Positions 13,850 through 52,494 of a stretch of DNA of 52,494 nt are shown here, one piece after another. This DNA comes from Candidatus Uhrbacteria bacterium (GTDB taxonomy: Bacteria; Patescibacteriota; Patescibacteriia; UBA9934; GWF2-40-263). Within the stretch, counting starts at the first letter, position 1. Every line of letters begins with the position of its first letter. Under the pieces are notes generated by a model. The model was not told the origin of the DNA and did not search any database. It saw only the letters and a program-made list of their open reading frames with translations. The position numbers and the translations under genes are program-made. The stretch is taken from the NCBI GenBank assembly GCA_016206085.1, contig JACQSF010000003.1:1-52494 (forward strand), given 5' to 3'.

Positions 13850-15001
13850 TTATTTTTTTCCACCCCACATTCTTGGCGTGCGCGAGAGTGCCTCGTCAAG
13901 AATCTGTTTTTGCATTTTGGAAAGCCGTTCCTGTGCGGCCGCGATGTGCACAGGGATCGCGGGGACGGGTTTGCCGAGCTTGCGCTGGAGCACGCGGTCG
14001 GCTGCCAGGGCGATGAAGGGAGCTGTGAGACCAAAACCTTCCTGAATCTCTCGAGGATTTCCAGATTCACCGAACCGGTCAGGCACACCGATTCGTTCTA
14101 TTGGGACAGGAACGGTGAGAGTGATCGTCTCGGCGACAACACCTGCCAGTCCACCTGCGACCTGGGCTTCTTCAACCGTTACGATCGCTCCGGTTTGTTT
14201 GGCTGCTGAGACGATCGCACGGATATCGACAGGTTTGATCGTGTGCATATTTACGACACGGCATTCGATCCCATGGTCTTTGGAAAGCATTTCCGCCGCG
14301 ACTAGTGCCTCGTATAAAAGAGGACCAGCACCGATAATAGTGAGATCATTTCCATGGCGATAGATTTCTGCGCGACCGACTTTGAATGGTGTTTTTTGAG
14401 TCGTAAATACAGGTGACTTTTCACGCGCAAAACGCAGGTAGCATGGGCCAGTCAGTTTGGCTGCGGCAAGAGTCATTTTGCGTGTTTCGATGGCGTCACA
14501 GGGTACGAACACGCGCATATTTGGCATCACTCGCATGATCGCGATGTCCTCGACCATTTGGTGGGTCGCGCCATCGGGACCCACCGACACTCCCGCATGA
14601 GCTCCAGCGATATTGACATTCGTGTTATTGAGCGCGACGGTCGTGCGGATCTGTTCCCAGTTTCGTCCTGGAGAGAAACAGGCATAGCTCGAAATAAACG
14701 GCACCTTGCCCGCCATGGCCATTCCGGCCGCGATCGACGCCATGGACTGTTCTGAAACGCCCATCTGCACAAATCGATCTGGGTACGCTTCTTTGAAAGC
14801 AAGCGAGCGCGTCGATTCTGTTAGATCGGCGCACAGAACAACGATATTTTTGTCGTCCTTGCCCGCTTCAACTAGCCCATCTCCATAGCCGTTGCGTGTG
14901 GGGATTTGTTTGAGTTTCTTGTCGTCAAACAGATCGCGCACTAAATATGCTTCGCGGTTGAGGCCTGGTTTAGGTTGCTTTACACGATTTGACGTATGCA
15001 T
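13850..15001 (-). CDS. Transketolase, C-terminal subunit
   Basis: GVSEQ, GPDGATHQ, YLRFAR, TVEEA. Confidence 0.93.
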   Translation of the reverse strand: MHTSNRVKQPKPGLNREAYLVRDLFDDKKLKQIPTRNGYGDGLVEAGKDDKNIVVLCADLTESTRSLAFKEAYPDRFVQMGVSEQSMASIAAGMAMAGKVPFISSYACFSPGRNWEQIRTTVALNNTNVNIAGAHAGVSVGPDGATHQMVEDIAIMRVMPNMRVFVPCDAIETRKMTLAAAKLTGPCYLRFAREKSPVFTTQKTPFKVGRAEIYRHGNDLTIIGAGPLLYEALVAAEMLSKDHGIECRVVNMHTIKPVDIRAIVSAAKQTGAIVTVEEAQVAGGLAGVVAETITLTVPVPIERIGVPDRFGESGNPREIQEGFGLTAPFIALAADRVLQRKLGKPVPAIPVHIAAAQERLSKMQKQILDEALSRTPRMWGGKK

Positions 15002-15017
15002 AAAGACATGATATTTT
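14989..15017 (+). promoter_or_regulatory. Sigma70-type promoter for NYN-antisense sRNA 1
   Basis: TTGACG-17 nt-TATTTT with extended TG. Confidence 0.65.
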
Positions 15018-15023
15018 ACTTAT

Positions 15024-15079
15024 ATCACCACGAAGAAGACCCCTGTGCGGTTCCGTCCGCATCGGGGGCTTTTTCTTTT
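15024..15079 (+). ncRNA. Candidate small RNA antisense to the NYN gene 3' end (copy 1)
   Basis: ATCACCACGAA leader, long hairpin and U tract; covaries with the copy at 37795-37851. Confidence 0.7.
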
Positions 15080-15576
15080 CGGAACTCTAGCAGTGGTCGC
15101 AAACGCGACTGACCAAGGTAGGTGATAGGAGCATTGGATCGCTTTAGTAAAATAGAGCACTTTTTTTCTTGTGCTGGAGAAACAATCATCTCAAGAGCCT
15201 TATGGCTATGGAGCATTTTAACGAGTCCGGCATAATCACCATCACTCGTAACAACGACTGCCTTTTGAAATGCTTTATGGAAGAAATCTATCGTTGCTTG
15301 TAAGACAAGGTCGGCATCACAGTTTCCTTTTGGTTTTCCATCTCGATCGAAGACTACTTCTTTAAAGACCAAAATAAATCCAACCTCTTGAAGAGATTGA
15401 TAGAGCATTCGATGTTTTGGAATCATTCCAAGAAAGAGATAGGCATTTTTTACACTGTGTTTTTCTCGTAACCAGATTCGAAAACGTCGATAATCAAGAA
15501 TCCAACCTTGAGATTGAATTCCACGGTGCAAGTTTGCTCCGTCAATGTATGCGTTGTTTCGCTGTTCTTTCTGCAC
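15025..15576 (-). CDS. NYN domain (LabA/DUF88, PIN-like) ribonuclease
   Basis: YIDGANL, KGNCDADL, TSDGDY acidic catalytic motifs. Confidence 0.9.
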   Translation of the reverse strand: MQKEQRNNAYIDGANLHRGIQSQGWILDYRRFRIWLREKHSVKNAYLFLGMIPKHRMLYQSLQEVGFILVFKEVVFDRDGKPKGNCDADLVLQATIDFFHKAFQKAVVVTSDGDYAGLVKMLHSHKALEMIVSPAQEKKCSILLKRSNAPITYLGQSRLRPLLEFRKEKAPDADGTAQGSSSW

Positions 15577-21558: not shown

Positions 21559-22374
21559 TTATTCAACGATGAGAGTTCCGGTCATGCTGTCATGGTAGGC
21601 ACAGTGGAAGTCATAACTGTCTTCTTCGTCAAAGTACCGTGTGAAATTCTCGCCTGGATTGAGCGTGCCTGTTCCCCAGGAGCCATCGTCTGCAGATGCC
21701 GTGTGCTTGGTATCTCCGTCATTGACGAAGCGAACCGCGCGTCCGGCATCGAGCTCAAGCGTGCTTGGGCTGTAGGAATTGTCTTGGATCGACACCGTCA
21801 GATACATCTGGAGACCCTTGTCTGCGTCGATGGAAAAGGCGTCAGCCTCCTCTGCATCAGGATCATACTGAGAGGCCATCTCGAGATCCGAGCCCATGGT
21901 GTAGTTTGAGAAGAATCCATCTGGGACGTCGTCAATCTGTTGGTTCCAGGTTGAACCGTAGAGGTCTTCGGCCACTTCCTCTGAAGGAATGCCCATGATT
22001 TCTCCACCCTCTCCAATGACGTAGACGGTTGGATCAGAGTTGATCTTGATCATCTTCACGCCCGGTTTGTAGGTGACGTTGCCGCCGATCTGGATGTCCG
22101 CGAGGTCTCCGTCGGAGATCCATTTCACATCATCAAAATCCTCGTACCAGGTGAAGTAGGTTTTGTCGTTTGGGAACACGTACCGGAAACCGTCCAAACC
22201 GTAGTAGTACACAGCGGAATAGGATTCTCCACGGATCAGGTCGCCAGATTCGAGATCCGTAAGACCCACGAGGGTTTGGGCGTTCGCTGAAGGGACGACG
22301 CTTACAAATGTCATGGCCACAAGACCTAGCATTGCAAGCACAGTAGCTGACAAAAGAGTCGTTGTTTTTGTCAT
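21559..22374 (-). CDS. Secreted acidic protein with C-terminal cupredoxin domain
   Basis: Signal peptide; HTA...FHCAYHDSM type-1 Cu ligands. Confidence 0.85.
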   Translation of the reverse strand: MTKTTTLLSATVLAMLGLVAMTFVSVVPSANAQTLVGLTDLESGDLIRGESYSAVYYYGLDGFRYVFPNDKTYFTWYEDFDDVKWISDGDLADIQIGGNVTYKPGVKMIKINSDPTVYVIGEGGEIMGIPSEEVAEDLYGSTWNQQIDDVPDGFFSNYTMGSDLEMASQYDPDAEEADAFSIDADKGLQMYLTVSIQDNSYSPSTLELDAGRAVRFVNDGDTKHTASADDGSWGTGTLNPGENFTRYFDEEDSYDFHCAYHDSMTGTLIVE

Positions 22375-22454: not shown

Positions 22455-23276
22455 TTACTCAACAATGATGGCTCCTTCAAAGATATTGCGGTCGCCGTAG
22501 GTTGAGTAGTAGTGCCAGGTTCCAGATTCGTCGAAATAACGGGTGAAATGATCGCCTGATCCCATCGTTCCGGATCCCCAGACGCGATCCCATTCGGTTG
22601 CGGAGTGGTTTTCGTTGGTCGTATTGAGGAATCGGACAGCGGTTCCACTGGAGATTGTAACCGTTGAGGAGCTATAACCTTGGTCGGTGATTTCCACGAG
22701 TGTATATGCCTCGAGGCCTTTGTCAGCGGCGATGGAGAAGGCATCGGCTTCTTCCGCGTCTGGGCTGTACTGTGAGGCAAGTTCGATGTGACTGCCAATC
22801 TCGTAGTTTCCAAAGAATCCGTCTGGGACATCATCGATCTGTTGGTTCCAGGTTGACCCATAGAGTTCGATGGCGATTTCCTCAGAGTCGATCGCGCGCA
22901 GTTCGCTCCCACCCGCTACCGCATAGACGGTTGGGTCTGAGTTGATTTTGAGCATCTTCACCCCTGGCTTATAGGTGACGTTTCCGCCGATCTGGATGGT
23001 TGCGAGTGTGTCGTCTGAGATCCACTTCACGTCATCGAAGTCCTCATACCAGGTGAAATACGTTGTGTCGTTTGGGAAGATATAGCGAAGACCGTCGTCC
23101 CCGTAATAGTAGACAGACGAGTAGGTTTCCCCGCGGATGAGGTCGCCCGCTTCAAGTTCAGACTCGGCAAGCGTGAGCGCATGGGCAGAAGAGGGAAGGG
23201 TGAGAATGGGTAGAAGGACTAGCAGGGTTAGGAGGTAGCCGCAGGCTTTAGCCTGCGTGAGTTTGAGAAAGTTCAT
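22455..23276 (-). CDS. Paralogous secreted cupredoxin-like protein lacking Cu ligands
   Basis: Long near-identical stretches with 21559-22374; YYSTYGDRNIF replaces HCAYHDSM. Confidence 0.85.
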   Translation of the reverse strand: MNFLKLTQAKACGYLLTLLVLLPILTLPSSAHALTLAESELEAGDLIRGETYSSVYYYGDDGLRYIFPNDTTYFTWYEDFDDVKWISDDTLATIQIGGNVTYKPGVKMLKINSDPTVYAVAGGSELRAIDSEEIAIELYGSTWNQQIDDVPDGFFGNYEIGSHIELASQYSPDAEEADAFSIAADKGLEAYTLVEITDQGYSSSTVTISSGTAVRFLNTTNENHSATEWDRVWGSGTMGSGDHFTRYFDESGTWHYYSTYGDRNIFEGAIIVE

Positions 23277-24407: not shown

Positions 24408-24574
24408 AGTGCTTTGATTCTATCAACTTTTGACTTTTCCGCCAAACTAAAGGGCAAATACTCATTTTGGTTTGTTCCAAAGTACGAATGCCCGAACATA
24501 TAGCGTGGCCAAGACAGTATTCGCGAGAAGTAATCCAGTCGATTTGGTTAGCAGACCCAAAACAAGCCAGGGTT

Positions 24575-36081: not shown

Positions 36082-37299
36082 ATGTGGCGGTTTGAATCCA
36101 CTCACGAACGCGCAGAATCTCACTATCTCGATCAGATGATCGCGAAGATTGAGGCTGACCCCCACCTGTTCAGACATGCCGAGGCTCTATTGGATGCCAT
36201 GGTGCATCAAGAGCCACTGATCGCCCAGAGCCTTAAAACACCACAGGATGTTCGATACCATGCCGAAGGACCGTTCATGCGCGATCATCTGCGGCTCATG
36301 CTCATGTTTTTGTTTGCTCTCTCTGAAGAAAAAATACATCTTGTCGACATTGAGGAGTTTCGTCGTCTGAAGGGGTATGAGGGTGAAGTGCAGGAGCTCG
36401 AGGATACGATCAAAGAGCATGTCGCCTTTTTTCAGGTGTTCGCCTTGTGTCATGATGTTGCGAAGTGGGTGACCGTCACGTTTAGTTCCAAGCCGGGTTC
36501 TCGTGGAGAGGCGCTTGGATTCAACACGCCTCGCCTCCATCACTTTGACGATGCGGCGCACGAGCGAGCGAATAAGCGTTCAGAGTATCTTGAATTGTAT
36601 AACACATTTTCAACGCGAGAGTTCACTGGGACGGATCGCGAGACACAGACACAGTTTTACCTCCAGTACGGGGTGAATGTGCACTACCCTACCCATGCTC
36701 GAAAAATTGATGCGCCCGTGTTTGCCGCTCTTTTGACCCGCCTGTGCCATGCGCACGATATATCTGATCATGATCGGTCTATGATCGGGGATCTCATTGT
36801 GCAACACATGGAGTGTGGGTTTGATTTCAAAATTCGTCGTCCTGCCCGCATTCGTCGATACACACATCTGGCCTTCAAGCGCGGGTACGATGCGGATGAT
36901 TTTATTGATCTCGCTCAAGGATGTCTGTTGCTCGATCAAGTCGTTGGATCACGGCGCCTTTCTGCCCATGGTTATTGGCATGATCCTCGGTCACTCATTC
37001 ATTTCTTTCAGAGCGAACACGACTTCGCGCCGCATCGTCGAGCACAGAAAGAGGCCGTCAGAGAGGGACAAGAAAAGAAAGAGCGTAATCGGGTCTTGCG
37101 TGAAGTTGGATTAGACGGCATAGCTATGATGGATGTGCTCGGGATGGAACCTGGATCTGAGTTTGGACTGGCTCTGCGTCGCATCCATGCCGCGGTGTTG
37201 GGTCAGGGAGAGATGCCAGGTTTTGGGAAAAAGATCGATGCAGAGATTGAACGCCGTGCCGGAGAGTTTTATCAAAAGATGTTTGAAAAAGGGGAGTAA
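36082..37299 (+). CDS. HD-domain protein
   Basis: YHAEG..DH, HDVAK, HYPTHA, HM; tail resembles tRNA nucleotidyltransferase C-termini. Confidence 0.75.
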   Translation: MWRFESTHERAESHYLDQMIAKIEADPHLFRHAEALLDAMVHQEPLIAQSLKTPQDVRYHAEGPFMRDHLRLMLMFLFALSEEKIHLVDIEEFRRLKGYEGEVQELEDTIKEHVAFFQVFALCHDVAKWVTVTFSSKPGSRGEALGFNTPRLHHFDDAAHERANKRSEYLELYNTFSTREFTGTDRETQTQFYLQYGVNVHYPTHARKIDAPVFAALLTRLCHAHDISDHDRSMIGDLIVQHMECGFDFKIRRPARIRRYTHLAFKRGYDADDFIDLAQGCLLLDQVVGSRRLSAHGYWHDPRSLIHFFQSEHDFAPHRRAQKEAVREGQEKKERNRVLREVGLDGIAMMDVLGMEPGSEFGLALRRIHAAVLGQGEMPGFGKKIDAEIERRAGEFYQKMFEKGE

Positions 37300-37300
37300 T

Positions 37301-37801
37301 ATGGACGAGAAGAATAAAAGTGTTGCATACATCGATGGCGCGAACCTTCACAAAGGGATTTCTGGATTGGGCTGGAAGTTGGACTATCGGAAATTTAGGT
37401 CTTGGATTCGGCAGAAGTATGGAGTGTCTGATGCCTGTTTGTTTATTGGATTAATAACGAAACATGCGTCCCTTTATACCTCCTTGCAGAGCGCAGGATA
37501 TAGATTGATTTTTAAAGAGGTTGTCTATGATGGAGACGGAAAGGCAAAGGGAAACTGTGATGCCGATTTGGTTCTCAATGCGGTAAGGGATTTTTTTGAG
37601 AATAATATTACGCAGGTCATTCTTGTTTCAAGCGATGGAGATTATGCTCCTCTTGTAAAATTTTGGCAGGAAAAATCCGTTTCCTGTACGGTGGTTTCAC
37701 CTGCTCCACGAAAACGATGTTCGATCCTCCTGAAAAAGACGGACGTCTCCATTTTGTATCTCGAGGAGGTTAAGCATAAGTTGTCATATACTCCAAAATA
37801 A
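37301..37801 (+). CDS. NYN domain (LabA/DUF88) ribonuclease, paralog of 15025-15576
   Basis: YIDGANL, KGNCDADL, SSDGDY; start reassigned to ATG 37301. Confidence 0.9.
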   Translation: MDEKNKSVAYIDGANLHKGISGLGWKLDYRKFRSWIRQKYGVSDACLFIGLITKHASLYTSLQSAGYRLIFKEVVYDGDGKAKGNCDADLVLNAVRDFFENNITQVILVSSDGDYAPLVKFWQEKSVSCTVVSPAPRKRCSILLKKTDVSILYLEEVKHKLSYTPK

Positions 37802-37851
37802 AAGAGCCCCCGGTACGGACGTATCCGTACAAGGGTCTCTTTCGTGGTGAT
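37795..37851 (-). ncRNA. Candidate small RNA convergent with the NYN gene (copy 2)
   Basis: Same leader, hairpin and U tract as 15024-15079; 39/47 ungapped identity. Confidence 0.7.
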
Positions 37852-37857
37852 ACTTCA

Positions 37858-37886
37858 AAGATAGGCTATTTCTTTATGAAAGTCAA
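37858..37886 (-). promoter_or_regulatory. Sigma70-type promoter for NYN-antisense sRNA 2
   Basis: TTGACT-17 nt-TATCTT; same 6-nt gap to the RNA start as in copy 1. Confidence 0.65.
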
Positions 37887-37931: not shown

Positions 37932-38477
37932 ATGATGGCGTATCTACAAGGCAGAGTGCTCTATCATGGCGTTGGGTATGTGATCGTGGAAAACGCAGGA
38001 ATTGGGTTTAAGATTACGGTACCAGAGTCCATCGCCCATGAGATTCAAGAACCGACGACTCTGTACCTTCATGAGGCCATTCGCGAAGACGGAAGTGAAC
38101 TCTTTGGATTTTTGTCGATGGCTCAGCTCGAGCTTTTTTGGAAGCTCATCGCCGTCTCAGGGGTAGGTCCTAAGAGCGCTCAGAAAATCGTGTATAGTGA
38201 CGCGGTTGAGCAGGTAAAGGCAAAGATTATGATCGGGGATCTCGCCGCACTCACAGACGTCCCTGGCATCGGTAAGAAAACCGGGCAGAAGATTATCCTT
38301 GAGCTCAAAGGGATCCTCGTGGAAGAACCGGGGATGAGTGCACTGGATGGCGATGCGATCGAGGCACTTATTGGACTTGGTTACTCTCGAAGAGACGCGG
38401 AAGCAGCATTGTCAGGCATCAAGGAAGGGGACACCGAGAGTCGGATCCGTCTGGCACTGAAGCGCTTGTCCCGATAA
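37932..38477 (+). CDS. ruvA: Holliday junction branch migration protein RuvA
   Basis: IRED..LFGF, VSGVGPKSA, VPGIGKKT, ALIGLGY. Confidence 0.95.
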   Translation: MMAYLQGRVLYHGVGYVIVENAGIGFKITVPESIAHEIQEPTTLYLHEAIREDGSELFGFLSMAQLELFWKLIAVSGVGPKSAQKIVYSDAVEQVKAKIMIGDLAALTDVPGIGKKTGQKIILELKGILVEEPGMSALDGDAIEALIGLGYSRRDAEAALSGIKEGDTESRIRLALKRLSR

Positions 38478-48832: not shown

Positions 48833-48859
48833 AAGAACATTCAGGAGCCTAGCAAATCC

Positions 48860-48888
48860 TTGACTTTTTAGCCAAACGCGAGTACTTT
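48860..48888 (+). promoter_or_regulatory. Sigma70-type promoter (duplicated at 51891-51919)
   Basis: TTGACT-17 nt-TACTTT. Confidence 0.65.
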
Positions 48889-49104
48889 CTCAAGTCGTTT
48901 GCATGACCGTCCGCCGTCGCCATCCCAACTACCCCCTTGGGGCTTCGAGGGACAAGAGGCTATGGCGGATCCGGCCTTCAGGCCGGAAAATCCGTCGGTT
49001 TTGCATTCACACCGGCACGGCGGAACCGTGCAGTGTCTGTTTTTGGGAGACCTTTTGGCTGGCCAGTGGCTGTCCTATAAGGCGTACCAAAGATGGAGGA
49101 AGCA

Positions 49105-49818
49105 ATGCCGAAGCTGACAACTGGCCAGATTTGCCAACTCATCGAGATCGATCGAGCCGGTGACGGTATCGGAAATCTCGTTCAGGAGCTCATCATTCGC
49201 CTCACCTCCGGCGGGGTTGCGGGCAAGATGACCGACCCGCGTGGAACCATGGCCAAGCGTCTGTGGGATCGCGGTTTCGGCCGCGACTCGGCGATCAAGG
49301 CCAAGAACTTCAAGGCCTACCTCGCCGCGATTCCCCAGATCCCCGCGAGCCTCATTGCGGAGGATTCCGACCTCTCCCTTCTCTCCCTCGCCGACCCGCG
49401 GCCTGGTCTGCTGCGAGCTTGCCAGCTCCTCGGGATCCAGTACGAGGAGCTGGGCTACGCGGATGGCGACGCCGAGCCCTTCGACGAGCGGTTCATGATC
49501 CCGGCCGCCCCCTTCTGGTTCCGCCACGACGACGGTCGCGCGAACAGCAACCGGCGTCCCGACCACTGCCGTGACGAGCTCGCCACCGGCGACATCCAGG
49601 TCGGCACGGCGACGGAAGGCATCTTCGCCTTCGCCCACCACCCGCAGATCGTGGTGGAGGGAGAACACATCATCGACCTTCCCGGAACGGTGCACCACTC
49701 CAGGCGCGTGCACTGCGCGTACCTCAGGGTGTGGAGCGGTCGGGTGGGGCTCGACCTCAGCGGGGACTCTGGCTTTGCCGACCCGAGCTACGGTGCCCTG
49801 CGCGTTCGCCGGAAGTGA
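49105..49818 (+). CDS. GC-rich hypothetical protein with CLec/DUF5701-like C-terminus, possible DGR target
   Basis: GGAGG SD; TATEGI..HP..DLPG...YG..R terminus. Confidence 0.7.
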   Translation: MPKLTTGQICQLIEIDRAGDGIGNLVQELIIRLTSGGVAGKMTDPRGTMAKRLWDRGFGRDSAIKAKNFKAYLAAIPQIPASLIAEDSDLSLLSLADPRPGLLRACQLLGIQYEELGYADGDAEPFDERFMIPAAPFWFRHDDGRANSNRRPDHCRDELATGDIQVGTATEGIFAFAHHPQIVVEGEHIIDLPGTVHHSRRVHCAYLRVWSGRVGLDLSGDSGFADPSYGALRVRRK

Positions 49819-51869: not shown

Positions 51870-51890
51870 ATAGGCAGATACTACCAATTC

Positions 51891-51919
51891 TTGACTTTTC
51901 CGCCAAACAGGAGTACTTT
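51891..51919 (+). promoter_or_regulatory. Sigma70-type promoter (duplicate of 48860-48888)
   Basis: TTGACT-17 nt-TACTTT. Confidence 0.65.
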
Positions 51920-52058
51920 CTCCAGTCGTTTGCACAGCCGTAATCCTTCGGTTTTGCACTCGCGCCGTACACGGCGGAACCGTGTAACACACTGTTTGTC
52001 GGCGTGACCTTGCGTAGGGCTGAGGCTCTTGTGAGGATACCGGCTTACGGAGGTTCAA

Positions 52059-52494
52059 ATGAGTCTGTTCGATCTGGCCCACGTGGCCAAACTTTACGAG
52101 ATCCAGAGGGCGCGTCTGAGCGCCGGCCAGGAGGGCATCGGGGATGAAGTCTCCAAGCTGATCCGTCGCCTCGAGATGGGTGGCGTGAACCAGTGGAGGA
52201 TCCAGGCCAAGCGCCTGTGGGACCGTGGCTTAGGCCGCGACTCGGCGGTCAAGGCCAAGAACTTCAAGGCCTACCTCGCGGGCATCCCGCAGATCCCCGC
52301 GAACCTCCTCGCGGAGGATCCAGACTTCCACCTCCTCTCCCTGTGCGACCCGCGGCCGGGACTGCTCCAGAGCTGCAAGCTCCTGGGGATCAAGTACGAG
52401 GAGCTGGGCTACACGGACGAAGACGCTGTCCCTTTCGACGACCGGTTCGTCACGCCCACCACCCCGTTCTGGTTCCGGCACGACGACGGAAGAA
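52059..52494 (+). CDS. Paralog of 49105-49818, truncated by the window end
   Basis: Manual translation MSLFDLAHV...AKRLWDRGLGRDSAVKAKNFKAYLAGIPQIP...FWFRHDDGR; GGAGG SD; missed by the ORF track because there is no stop. Confidence 0.85.
   Translation, partial: MSLFDLAHVAKLYEIQRARLSAGQEGIGDEVSKLIRRLEMGGVNQWRIQAKRLWDRGLGRDSAVKAKNFKAYLAGIPQIPANLLAEDPDFHLLSLCDPRPGLLQSCKLLGIKYEELGYTDEDAVPFDDRFVTPTTPFWFRHDDGR

Follow-up and report, generated by a model that had tools for sequence, protein, structure and literature searches.

A stand-alone NYN nuclease gene paired with a convergent small RNA gene: a candidate RNA-antidote module of Patescibacteria

Introduction

Most Patescibacteria (CPR) have yet to be cultured; their genomes are very small, and few regulatory RNAs, toxin-antitoxin systems or defence modules have been recognised in them. 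The DNA analysed here (the window; 52,494 nucleotides of contig JACQSF010000003.1 from a Candidatus Uhrbacteria bacterium) carries two genes for stand-alone NYN proteins, each with an inverted repeat at its 3' end that faces it from the opposite strand. A first-pass annotation, made from the letters alone, had read this arrangement as a two-part module in which a small RNA neutralises or regulates a ribonuclease. Here, we ask whether this RNA gene is a conserved unit, whether it belongs to the nuclease gene and how it could act on its product.

Results

Anatomy of the two loci

At the first locus, the NYN gene occupies positions 15025..15576 of the minus strand (183 aa). Its last ~18 codons are crossed by the small RNA gene at 15024..15079/15080 of the plus strand, which is about 56–57 nt long and matches R1, our covariance model of the small RNA, with 70.9 bits (E 1e-12). 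The promoter of this RNA (14989..15017, plus strand) consists of a -35 box TTGACG (14989-14994), a 17-nt spacer and a TG-extended -10 box TATTTT (15012-15017), and the RNA follows 6 nt further on. Boxes, spacing, the 56-nt RNA string and its overlap with the end of the NYN gene had all been described in the first-pass annotation and were found unchanged at 14989-15079. The same promoter overlaps the annotated start (15001) of the ORF for a transketolase subunit, which lies downstream and is read from the opposite strand.

The second NYN gene (37301..37801, plus strand; 166 aa from the ATG at 37301) is met by an RNA gene of about 56 nt at 37796..37851 of the minus strand (R1 match 69.4 bits, E 2.3e-12), with its promoter at 37858..37886 of the same strand (TTGACT, 17-nt spacer, TATCTT) and again a 6-nt gap. 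The earlier statement that this locus repeats the cassette of the first holds for promoter, gap and RNA, but not for the 18-codon overlap: the hairpin lies just past the NYN stop codon (37799-37801), and the overlap is confined to the stop codon and the U-run. The RNA promoter is located between the NYN gene and ruvA (37932..38477), while the NYN gene itself starts 1 nt past the stop codon of an upstream 405-aa ORF. Next to the NYN genes, the window encodes proteins of 405 aa and 1374 aa that show no relationship to each other; a Pfam search with the former gave no match.

A convergent unit of the same build thus stands at the end of both NYN genes and comprises a TTGAC-type promoter, a single-stranded 5' tail starting with AUCAC, a long hairpin with a 6-nt loop and a U-run (intrinsic terminator). 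The predicted folds have energies of -28.4 (copy 1) and -25.3 kcal/mol (copy 2) on the antisense strand (z -4.7 and -4.9), compared to -22.9 and -22.8 kcal/mol on the sense strand. The two RNAs are identical at 45/56 positions over the full length and, as noted earlier, at 39/47 without gaps over the first 47 nt; the proteins (85/158 identical) and their coding DNA (55%) are indeed more diverged. On the minimum-energy folds, we recovered the reported compensatory pairs 13:48 (A-U/G-C) and 24:37 (G-C/A-U), the wobble-compatible pairs 12:49, 20:42 and 22:39 and the loop changes at positions 28 and 30. Taken alone, a promoter match of such quality does not exceed chance level in the region (4 found versus 4.1 expected from shuffles), so that the support for the promoter comes from the comparison with other genomes.

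The NYN proteins

Both proteins match Pfam PF01936 (40.2 and 59.0 bits; cut-off 24.2), and a search of NCBIfam gave nothing above cut-off. For an AlphaFold2 model of copy 2 (pLDDT 92.9), the best folds were 2qip (TM 0.77/0.80) and the NYN domain of MARF1 (TM 0.64/0.71). In a subfamily alignment of 49 sequences, D13, D88 and D115 are invariant and D113 is conserved in at least 90%. Copy 2 is modelled as a PIN-like fold, the acidic metal-binding residues are conserved in the subfamily, and ribonuclease activity would be expected from the family. Domain, fold and acidic active-site residues are shared with stand-alone or CRISPR-associated bacterial NYN/LabA-like nucleases (2qip and, in the accessible part of its description, the NYN protein of B. 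fragilis). One bacterial NYN protein is presented as a sequence-nonspecific, Mn-dependent single-strand RNase in the excerpt available of that report (10.1101/2024.04.08.588522).

Within the searchable papers, which cover the literature in part and exclude supplementary files, no small RNA gene is described for such nucleases, and no paper was found that links NYN to an RNA antitoxin or an antisense RNA; the one paper in which both NYN and RNA antitoxins are named has the NYN-domain publication among its references and draws no such link. The defence libraries yielded merely weak PADLOC matches, to NYN and HEC-09; the latter is an NYN candidate that gave no phage defence in E. coli according to the accessible section of the study (10.1101/2024.01.29.577857). 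The third NYN gene of the genome belongs to another subfamily and lacks the RNA in the R1 search.

A structured RNA family on the strand opposite NYN

Building a covariance model across Patescibacteria had been proposed as a check, and it recovered a small RNA family of 161 distinct sequences with a hairpin supported by covariation. In A4, one of the alignments A2–A4 fitted to R1, 98% of cells pair and 12/16 pairs are compensatory, which was matched by 0/500 shuffles, and the score of 0.407 compares with 0.06–0.13 in slid controls. Alignment A2 gave 14/16 compensatory pairs, with outer-stem counts that understate pairing since R1 misaligns the outer stem of an RNA subclass with a 3-nt bulge. 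RNAalifold on a plain MAFFT alignment returned 7/9 compensatory pairs. The comparison to Rfam 15, likewise proposed at the outset, gave no match at gathering thresholds for the two loci and, at E up to 10, chance-level matches alone (12–18 bits versus cut-offs of 39–74).

The family is clearly oriented. The antisense strand folds more stably than the sense strand in 78/84 cases, a U-G pair is conserved in 53/65 RNAs, and related RNAs contain 93 G-U versus 11 A-C cells, in line with the earlier claim that the G-U pairs work on the antisense strand only. A U-run (at least 6 T in 10 nt) is present in 112/161 sequences on the RNA strand versus 17/161 on the sense strand; an intrinsic (rho-independent) terminator is thereby predicted on the RNA strand and only a weak one on the sense strand. 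The promoter, which lies outside the R1 model, keeps a nearly fixed place: its -10 box ends 6–9 nt upstream of the RNA in 68/83 distinct related loci, as opposed to 1.1% of 2253 random windows. Given the G-U bias, the U-run and the promoter, we rejected the reading in which the functional element is a sense-strand hairpin in the 3' UTR of the NYN mRNA.

These observations also bear on the idea that the element is just an insulator, where a bidirectional terminator ends the NYN transcript, the convergent promoter acts by interference or as a roadblock, and the RNA is a functionless by-product. The hairpin does fold on the sense strand, too, with the energies given above, and the next gene is close and co-directional in 35 of the 52 loci with an assessable flanking ORF (61 loci examined), so insulation could matter. 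However, stem covariation, G-U bias and U-run favour one strand, and a good U-run in the sense direction is found in merely 17/161 sequences. Furthermore, the RNA is better conserved in sequence than the protein, to the depth of the phylum, and tandem extra RNA copies, each with its own promoter, are located away from any NYN end. We therefore consider pure insulation improbable. Far more improbable still is a role at the DNA level, for example as a recombination site or an integron attC-like cassette site ending a mobile NYN cassette. Such a site would fit in that the inverted repeat is imperfect and closes a gene seen in many contexts, but the promoter at fixed distance (TTGAC/-10) and the U-run would be left unexplained, the genome has only two copies without any array of different cassettes, and the conserved neighbours include no integrase; on these grounds we rejected it.

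Linkage of the RNA to NYN genes

The first-pass annotation had named occurrence of the motif away from NYN genes as a point against its proposal. In the 877-kb genome of origin, R1 has two matches at E<=1, both at NYN genes. Starting from the protein, all 25 loci from this genome and its relatives carry the RNA, and 61/61 loci picked by the NYN protein alone in named Patescibacteria MAGs have it antisense at the 3' end of the gene; for these counts as for the covariation, related genomes are not independent samples. Two seeming exceptions in the order (G015:C62 and G042:C29) turned out to contain a variant RNA, and no intact NYN gene of the subfamily without the RNA was seen among the loci examined. 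In the other direction, the link is looser: 66 of 84 RNA matches have a convergent NYN gene, and the rest stand beside NYN remnants or alone. The RNA is retained where the neighbouring NYN gene has internal deletions (L058, L062, L069, L074 and L076) or nonsense codons (L128 and L164). This persistence of the RNA next to broken NYN genes, with no reverse case seen among the loci examined, represents an antidote-like asymmetry.

The position of the overlap is kept as well. The NYN stop codon falls within the RNA-complementary stretch in 57/62 loci, although its exact position is not conserved. In copy 2 and in 26/62 related loci, the overlap with the ORF amounts to merely a few nt, and pairing at such loci would rely on a putative 3' UTR. 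The annotated absence of an obvious protein antitoxin extends to the relatives: after clustering ORFs of at least 70 aa from 61 NYN loci, no family besides NYN occurred in more than 6 loci. Altogether, the comparative data strongly support the proposed two-part design: a small stand-alone, putatively metal-dependent NYN nuclease and a convergent RNA of ~56–60 nt under a near-consensus sigma-70-type promoter appear to form a self-contained module of two genes found widely across Patescibacteria. The RNA is conserved, promoter-equipped, structured and present with every examined subfamily member.

Matches to R1 were obtained in 56/150 genomes at the level of the order, 47/151 of the class and 22/151 of the phylum. 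The spread is patchy and multi-copy, with about 1/4 to 1/3 of the sampled genomes carrying the RNA in up to 4 copies and in varied contexts. Some contigs predicted to be viral also carry the module.

If the RNA were a cofactor or substrate of NYN (a processing target, guide or specificity subunit) in harmless RNA metabolism, without any toxin-antidote pair, the strict co-occurrence and the conservation of unpaired motifs would fit too. In the accessible parts of the respective sources, bacterial PF01936 proteins have no established function but neighbourhood links to tRNA/rRNA processing (PMC5499597), and a CRISPR-associated NYN protein trims crRNA. This explanation is at odds with the patchy, multi-copy spread in varied contexts, with NYN pseudogenes beside intact RNAs and with the 11-nt 5' tail, for which the genome offers no conserved target: exact 11-mer matches occur solely at the two loci, and allowing up to one mismatch adds only scattered coding matches. 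We judge a harmless partner RNA unlikely.

Variant RNA classes

More distant NYN clades have variant RNAs of the same build, and R1 recovers 17 of the 30 RNAs beside such genes. Among the unpaired nucleotides, a 5' AUCAC is conserved in 108/161 sequences and a loop ending in GU in most; the 5' tail motif is common to all RNA classes, while internal motifs are class-specific and distinct between NYN clades. Mapped on the NYN tree (FastTree), RNA class requires 4 changes compared to 19–20 in the 5 label shuffles listed out of 200, with 94 of 111 rows assigned by patterns that we defined ourselves and the 17 unassignable rows left out. Two RNA classes coexist in single genomes (G015 and G042).

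Discussion

We favour, with somewhat better than even confidence, the interpretation that the RNA is a dedicated antidote of NYN, i.e. an antitoxin-like negative regulator. NYN would then be toxic when unchecked, and the module could serve defence or addiction. As an antidote, the RNA would extend the list of RNA-controlled toxins by a nuclease fold and an architecture that are both new to it. Irrespective of its role, it gives the stand-alone NYN nucleases of bacteria, for which a survey of the PIN superfamily records no known function (PMC5499597), a first dedicated partner, and the 161 distinct sequences with strong covariation constitute a new, well-supported structured RNA family without an Rfam entry.

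As to mechanism, our first choice, by a narrow margin and held tentatively, is type I-like action. The RNA would pair with the 3' end of the NYN mRNA, to which it is fully complementary; the 5' tail would serve as a toehold, and the complementary loops of both transcripts could kiss. In most loci, the resulting duplex would span the stop codon, and the NYN mRNA might then be cut, destabilised or stripped of its stop codon. As long as the RNA is transcribed, little active NYN would be made; once its supply ends, NYN would accumulate and degrade RNA.

By definition, the toxin of a type I system is a small, usually hydrophobic peptide. Antisense RNAs overlapping the 3' end of the toxin gene are known from several such systems, including txpA/RatA, bsrG/SR4 and the E. 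faecalis par locus, the last with a shared bidirectional terminator. For yonT/SR6 of B. subtilis, the accessible literature likewise describes a convergent RNA with its own promoter over the 3' end of the toxin gene, as observed here. Also shared with these systems are a terminator hairpin common to both transcripts and an RNA perfectly complementary to the mRNA; in our set, complementarity is given by position (57/62 and 61/61 loci) and pairing is predicted. In contrast to their small membrane peptides, the protein here is a soluble nuclease of 166–183 aa, the RNA of ~57 nt is just a tail plus terminator hairpin, and its unpaired nucleotides are conserved across a phylum. Complements of the 5' tail in NYN start regions, inspected by eye at 27 loci, amounted to a partial match in two related loci only; a second pairing region at the translation start, as in par-like systems, was not found, which counts against the type I-like mechanism. 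The first six bases of the tail resemble the 3' end of 16S rRNA, a lead that was dropped as this end lies outside the assembly.

Nuclease-like toxins are not foreign to type I systems, RalR/RalA being one such pair, again with a fold unrelated to NYN; in SymE/SymR, it is the 5' end of the toxin's mRNA that the antisense RNA overlaps. The available text on SymE/SymR (PMC1891008) describes a nuclease-type protein under a cis-encoded antisense RNA, similar to what is proposed here, but with an unrelated protein fold instead of NYN and with SOS control, which we did not see.

Action purely as a cis-antisense RNA leaves the conserved unpaired nucleotides and the clade-specific internal motifs unexplained. 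The conservation of the unpaired nucleotides suggests additional recognition of the RNA by a protein, which is probably NYN itself. Taken further, this leads to a type III-like mechanism, which we rate only just behind the type I-like one: the RNA would bind the NYN protein as a pseudo-substrate or inhibitor via loop and 5' tail and sequester the nuclease, and the antisense placement would merely keep the genes linked and sharing one terminator. Its attraction is that NYN is an RNA-binding nuclease fold and that unpaired positions are deeply conserved while stems drift with compensation. The tail motif shared by all classes, the internal motifs tracking NYN clades and the two classes side by side in G015 and G042 fit as well, although simple co-inheritance would likewise make classes track clades. 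Promoter and fold are preserved in orphan and tandem copies that have no complementary NYN mRNA alongside, which counts against cis-antisense action and favours binding. Yet the convergent overlap is retained in 61/61 loci, which binding alone would not need. There are sequence indications for each of the two modes, antisense pairing and protein binding, and they may act together. A full type I/type III hybrid, rather speculative at present, would have the RNA both antisense to the NYN mRNA and bound by NYN as a sequence-specific inhibitor, diversified into several orthogonal classes and ranking among the commonest addiction or abortive-infection modules of Patescibacteria. If the RNA is an antidote, the module could yield compact RNase/RNA-inhibitor pairs in several apparently orthogonal classes.

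The type III systems ToxIN, CptIN and TenpIN are, in the accessible accounts, similar in that an endoribonuclease is held in check by an adjacent structured RNA without a protein antitoxin, and the conserved unpaired motifs are suggestive, though only that, of the RNA binding and inhibiting NYN in a comparable way. The toxin fold differs from NYN, however, and the antitoxins described there are tandem repeats on the sense strand upstream of the toxin gene, which the toxin processes. Here, instead of an upstream direct-repeat array on the same strand, we find one unit only, placed at the 3' end and on the opposite strand, and where tandem arrays do occur, which is rare, each member is a whole RNA gene with a promoter of its own.

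Two convergent NYN–RNA units in one contig

At the 3′ end of two genes encoding NYN-domain proteins (PF01936), the window carries a small RNA unit on the opposite strand. For copy 1, inspection of the sequence revealed a promoter on the plus strand (TTGACG at 14989–14994, a 17-nt spacer, TATTTT at 15012–15017), followed after 6 nt by a 56-nt RNA sequence (15024–15079), which is antisense to the final ~18 codons of the NYN gene, a 183-aa ORF with a Pfam NYN match on the minus strand (15025..15576). The first-pass annotation had placed promoter, gap and antisense RNA in the same way. It had also described the same cassette at the second NYN gene, 22 kb away. At that gene (plus strand, ATG at 37301, stop at 37799–37801) the unit is indeed present on the minus strand, with the promoter TTGACT-17-TATCTT at 37886–37858 and, 6 nt further on, the RNA at 37851–37796 facing the gene, but the overlap is limited to the stop codon and the U-run.

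The two RNAs are identical at 45/56 positions (39/47 over the stretch originally compared, the same count as before), and the base-pair changes named between them are all as stated; the NYN copies share 54% identity as proteins and 55% as coding DNA. In the predicted folds of the two RNAs (−28.4 and −25.3 kcal/mol, z about −4.8), a single-stranded tail of ~8–11 nt leads into a long hairpin, which is followed by a U-run; folding of the sense strand is weaker in both copies. Since a single promoter match of this quality is no excess over chance within one region, the case rests on the comparison across genomes.

In the window (14989–15001) and in L009, L012 and L016, the co-directional gene that comes next has a start codon that touches or overlaps, on the opposite strand, the −35 box belonging to the RNA. 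The start of a transketolase-subunit ORF in the window falls inside the promoter spacer; since the Pfam domain of this ORF does not begin before residue 32, the true start may lie further in. A 405-aa ORF without Pfam match (36082–37299) ends 1 nt before the start of NYN copy 2; homologous upstream sequence occurs in one relative (L143), but NYN genes in general lack it as a neighbour.

Linkage between the nuclease and the RNA

Using NYN copy 2 as a query against 60 related genomes, we found full-length subfamily members in 24 (read off the match table), and a convergent promoter–RNA unit in the same orientation was present in the 3′ flank of all 25 readable loci (23 from relatives and the two own copies). 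A covariance model, R1, was built from 25 RNA sequences with the promoter excluded; comparison of the two match tables showed that all 24 subfamily-bearing genomes also have R1 matches. In addition, a second set of 61 loci was picked by protein alone from named Patescibacteria MAGs, which are the closest named relatives of these loci (Uhr-, Nomura-, Pacei-, Azam-, Buchanan-, Colwell-, Komeili-, Taylor-, Kerfeld-, Gracilibacteria and others). All 61 bear an R1 match at the NYN 3′ end on the opposite strand. The observation of the first-pass annotation holds and extends far beyond the window, and the two-part module it put forward is real. Two NYN genes of the order sample gave no R1 match (G015:C62, G042:C29), and both bear a variant RNA of the same build; no intact NYN gene without an RNA was seen among the loci examined.

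Counted from the RNA, the linkage is looser. The source genome (877 kb in 34 contigs, 51% G+C, 83% estimated completeness; the window is contig 29) contains only two R1 matches at E ≤ 1, both at NYN genes; a third PF01936 gene, of another subfamily, has an ordinary hairpin only. The suggested covariance search across Patescibacteria yielded matches at all levels, namely in 56/150 genomes of the order, 47/151 of the class and 22/151 of the phylum. Within the order, 84 matches were gathered; a convergent NYN match accompanies 66 of them (short or partial in 5 cases) and is lacking for 18. Several of these 18 are weak matches; in L080 masked bases conceal the NYN gene, and in at least two others (L058, L076) the NYN gene is present but has internal deletions. 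In the class and phylum samples, 19/22 matches are NYN-linked, and one of the remaining three arises as an echo, on the reverse strand, of a true match.

In L128 and L164 the NYN gene contains in-frame stop codons beside an intact RNA; the RNA gene can thus outlive the nuclease gene. Decayed NYN genes beside intact-looking RNAs also occur with internal deletions (L058, L062, L069, L074, L076) or truncations (L184, L176), and in L047 it is an unrelated ORF of 340 aa whose end the RNA overlaps. RNA genes also occur two or three in tandem, every one complete with promoter and terminator, in L151 (1984–2271), L026, L083 and L120. Such arrays adjoin one NYN gene, and L174 contains several NYN–RNA cassettes in a row.

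Structure and strand of the RNA

Base-pair covariation shows that the small RNA is structured, and base-pair type, U-run and promoter assign it to the antisense strand. In the protein-chosen alignment (65 sequences), 98% of cells are paired and 12/16 pairs show compensatory change (125 cells), values reached by none of 500 shuffles; the covariation score of 0.407 fell to 0.06–0.13 when partners were slid. The order-level set showed compensatory change in 14/16 pairs. Both alignments are fitted to R1; on a plain MAFFT alignment, RNAalifold already found such change in 7/9 pairs. The stems drift freely, with compensation. For all these counts, related genomes do not represent independent samples. 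As proposed earlier, G-U pairs point to the antisense strand: the inner stem holds 93 G-U versus 11 A-C cells, one U-G pair is kept in 53/65 sequences of the protein-chosen set, and the modelled strand is more stable in 78/84 sequences. At least six T within 10 nt after the hairpin occur on the RNA strand in 112/161 distinct RNAs versus 17/161 on the sense strand.

Outside R1, a promoter pattern (TTGAC-type −35, 16–19-nt spacer, TAnnnT −10 ending 6–9 nt before the RNA) precedes 68/83 distinct sequences versus 1.1% of 2253 random windows, and with exact TTGAC 64/83 versus 0.13%; 37 of the RNA promoters have a TG extension of the −10. Of 161 RNAs, 108 begin their 5′ tail with AUCAC, and the commonest loop is UUCCGU, closed by GG/CC, with GU at the loop end in most. 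The NYN stop codon lies within the RNA-complementary stretch in 57/62 loci, at positions ranging from the tail to the U-run, so coding is not what constrains the RNA sequence.

Variant RNA classes in the wider family

NYN homologues with 32–46% mutual identity occur in 80/301 sampled genomes of the phylum. Thirty such loci bear a convergent promoter–RNA unit, 22 by the strict pattern and the other eight by eye, and R1 recognises 17 of the 30 RNAs. Common to the RNAs it misses are the promoter, an outer purine/pyrimidine stem, the U-run and a tail that starts with AUCAC or AUUAC and continues GA-rich; their internal modules differ. In distant NYN clades the inner hairpin is swapped for other conserved modules, forming at least three further classes (L202–L207, L232 at 430–700, L233 at 720–1000, L189–L191; R1 misses most). 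RNA class follows the NYN tree, with 4 changes versus 19–20 in the five reported out of 200 label shuffles (94/111 rows, author-defined class patterns, FastTree tree), for which co-inheritance alone would suffice. Two classes co-occur in genomes G015 and G042. On predicted viral contigs we found 16 NYN relatives, the three closest with an R1 match in the expected place. A profile search retrieved 341 cluster representatives at E ≤ 1e-30, a number that rises to 1650 when the threshold is relaxed to 1e-10.

The nuclease and possible roles of the RNA

The subfamily consists of a bare NYN domain. Four of its residues (D13, N16, D88, D115) never vary among 49 sequences, and D113 hardly does. The structure model (pLDDT 92.9) best matches LabA-like 2qip (TM 0.77/0.80) and the MARF1 NYN RNase domain (TM 0.64/0.71). 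In line with the earlier remark that a protein antitoxin is not obvious, the neighbourhoods of the 61 loci share no recurrent protein family besides NYN, and the window's two neighbours are unrelated. Among the 61 loci, the gene that follows past the RNA promoter runs co-directionally in 35 and convergently in 17.

Bacterial PF01936 groups are listed without a known function in a PIN-superfamily survey (PMC5499597), a CRISPR-associated NYN protein is a non-specific Mn-dependent ssRNase (10.1101/2024.04.08.588522), and the NYN candidate HEC-09 gave no phage defence (10.1101/2024.01.29.577857). No Rfam 15 family matches the RNA, a comparison that the first-pass annotation had advised. In the partly covered full-text literature no report was found that pairs a NYN nuclease with an antisense RNA or an RNA antitoxin; the sole paper containing both “NYN” and “RNA antitoxin” merely cites a NYN-domain paper.

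There is good motivation to infer that the RNA would be the antidote of the nuclease. A nuclease checked by a dedicated RNA would fit the linkage, in which NYN depends strictly on the RNA, and the persistence of the RNA where NYN genes are broken; it would also fit a distribution that is patchy, multi-copy and context-free, the strong predicted promoter of so short an RNA, and the intact active site. A ribonucleoprotein with a harmless function is rather unlikely, and a mere insulator slightly more so. As to the mode of action, we tentatively put antisense action on the NYN mRNA slightly ahead, since convergent overlap is found in every case, the duplex region includes the stop codon and type I precedents with 3′ overlap exist. 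Direct recognition of the RNA by the NYN protein ranks close behind; conserved unpaired nucleotides, clade-specific internal motifs and the intactness of orphan and tandem copies would favour it. A combination of pairing and recognition is plausible.

Other features of the window

The contig opens with the end of a 23S rRNA and a 5S rRNA (1–551), and the final 40 nt of the 5S region (512–551) are repeated at 804–843 with 88% identity. Two adjacent stretches 902 nt apart (21808–22257 and 22710–23159; 73–79% identical) are probably tandem paralogous genes. A promoter-like motif (TTGACT, conserved spacer with GCCAAAC, TACT..) occurs in three copies upstream of different genes (24416–24447, 48855–48919, 51877–51950), the latter two copies as part of a larger duplication (49251–49535 versus 52205–52489, 82% identical).
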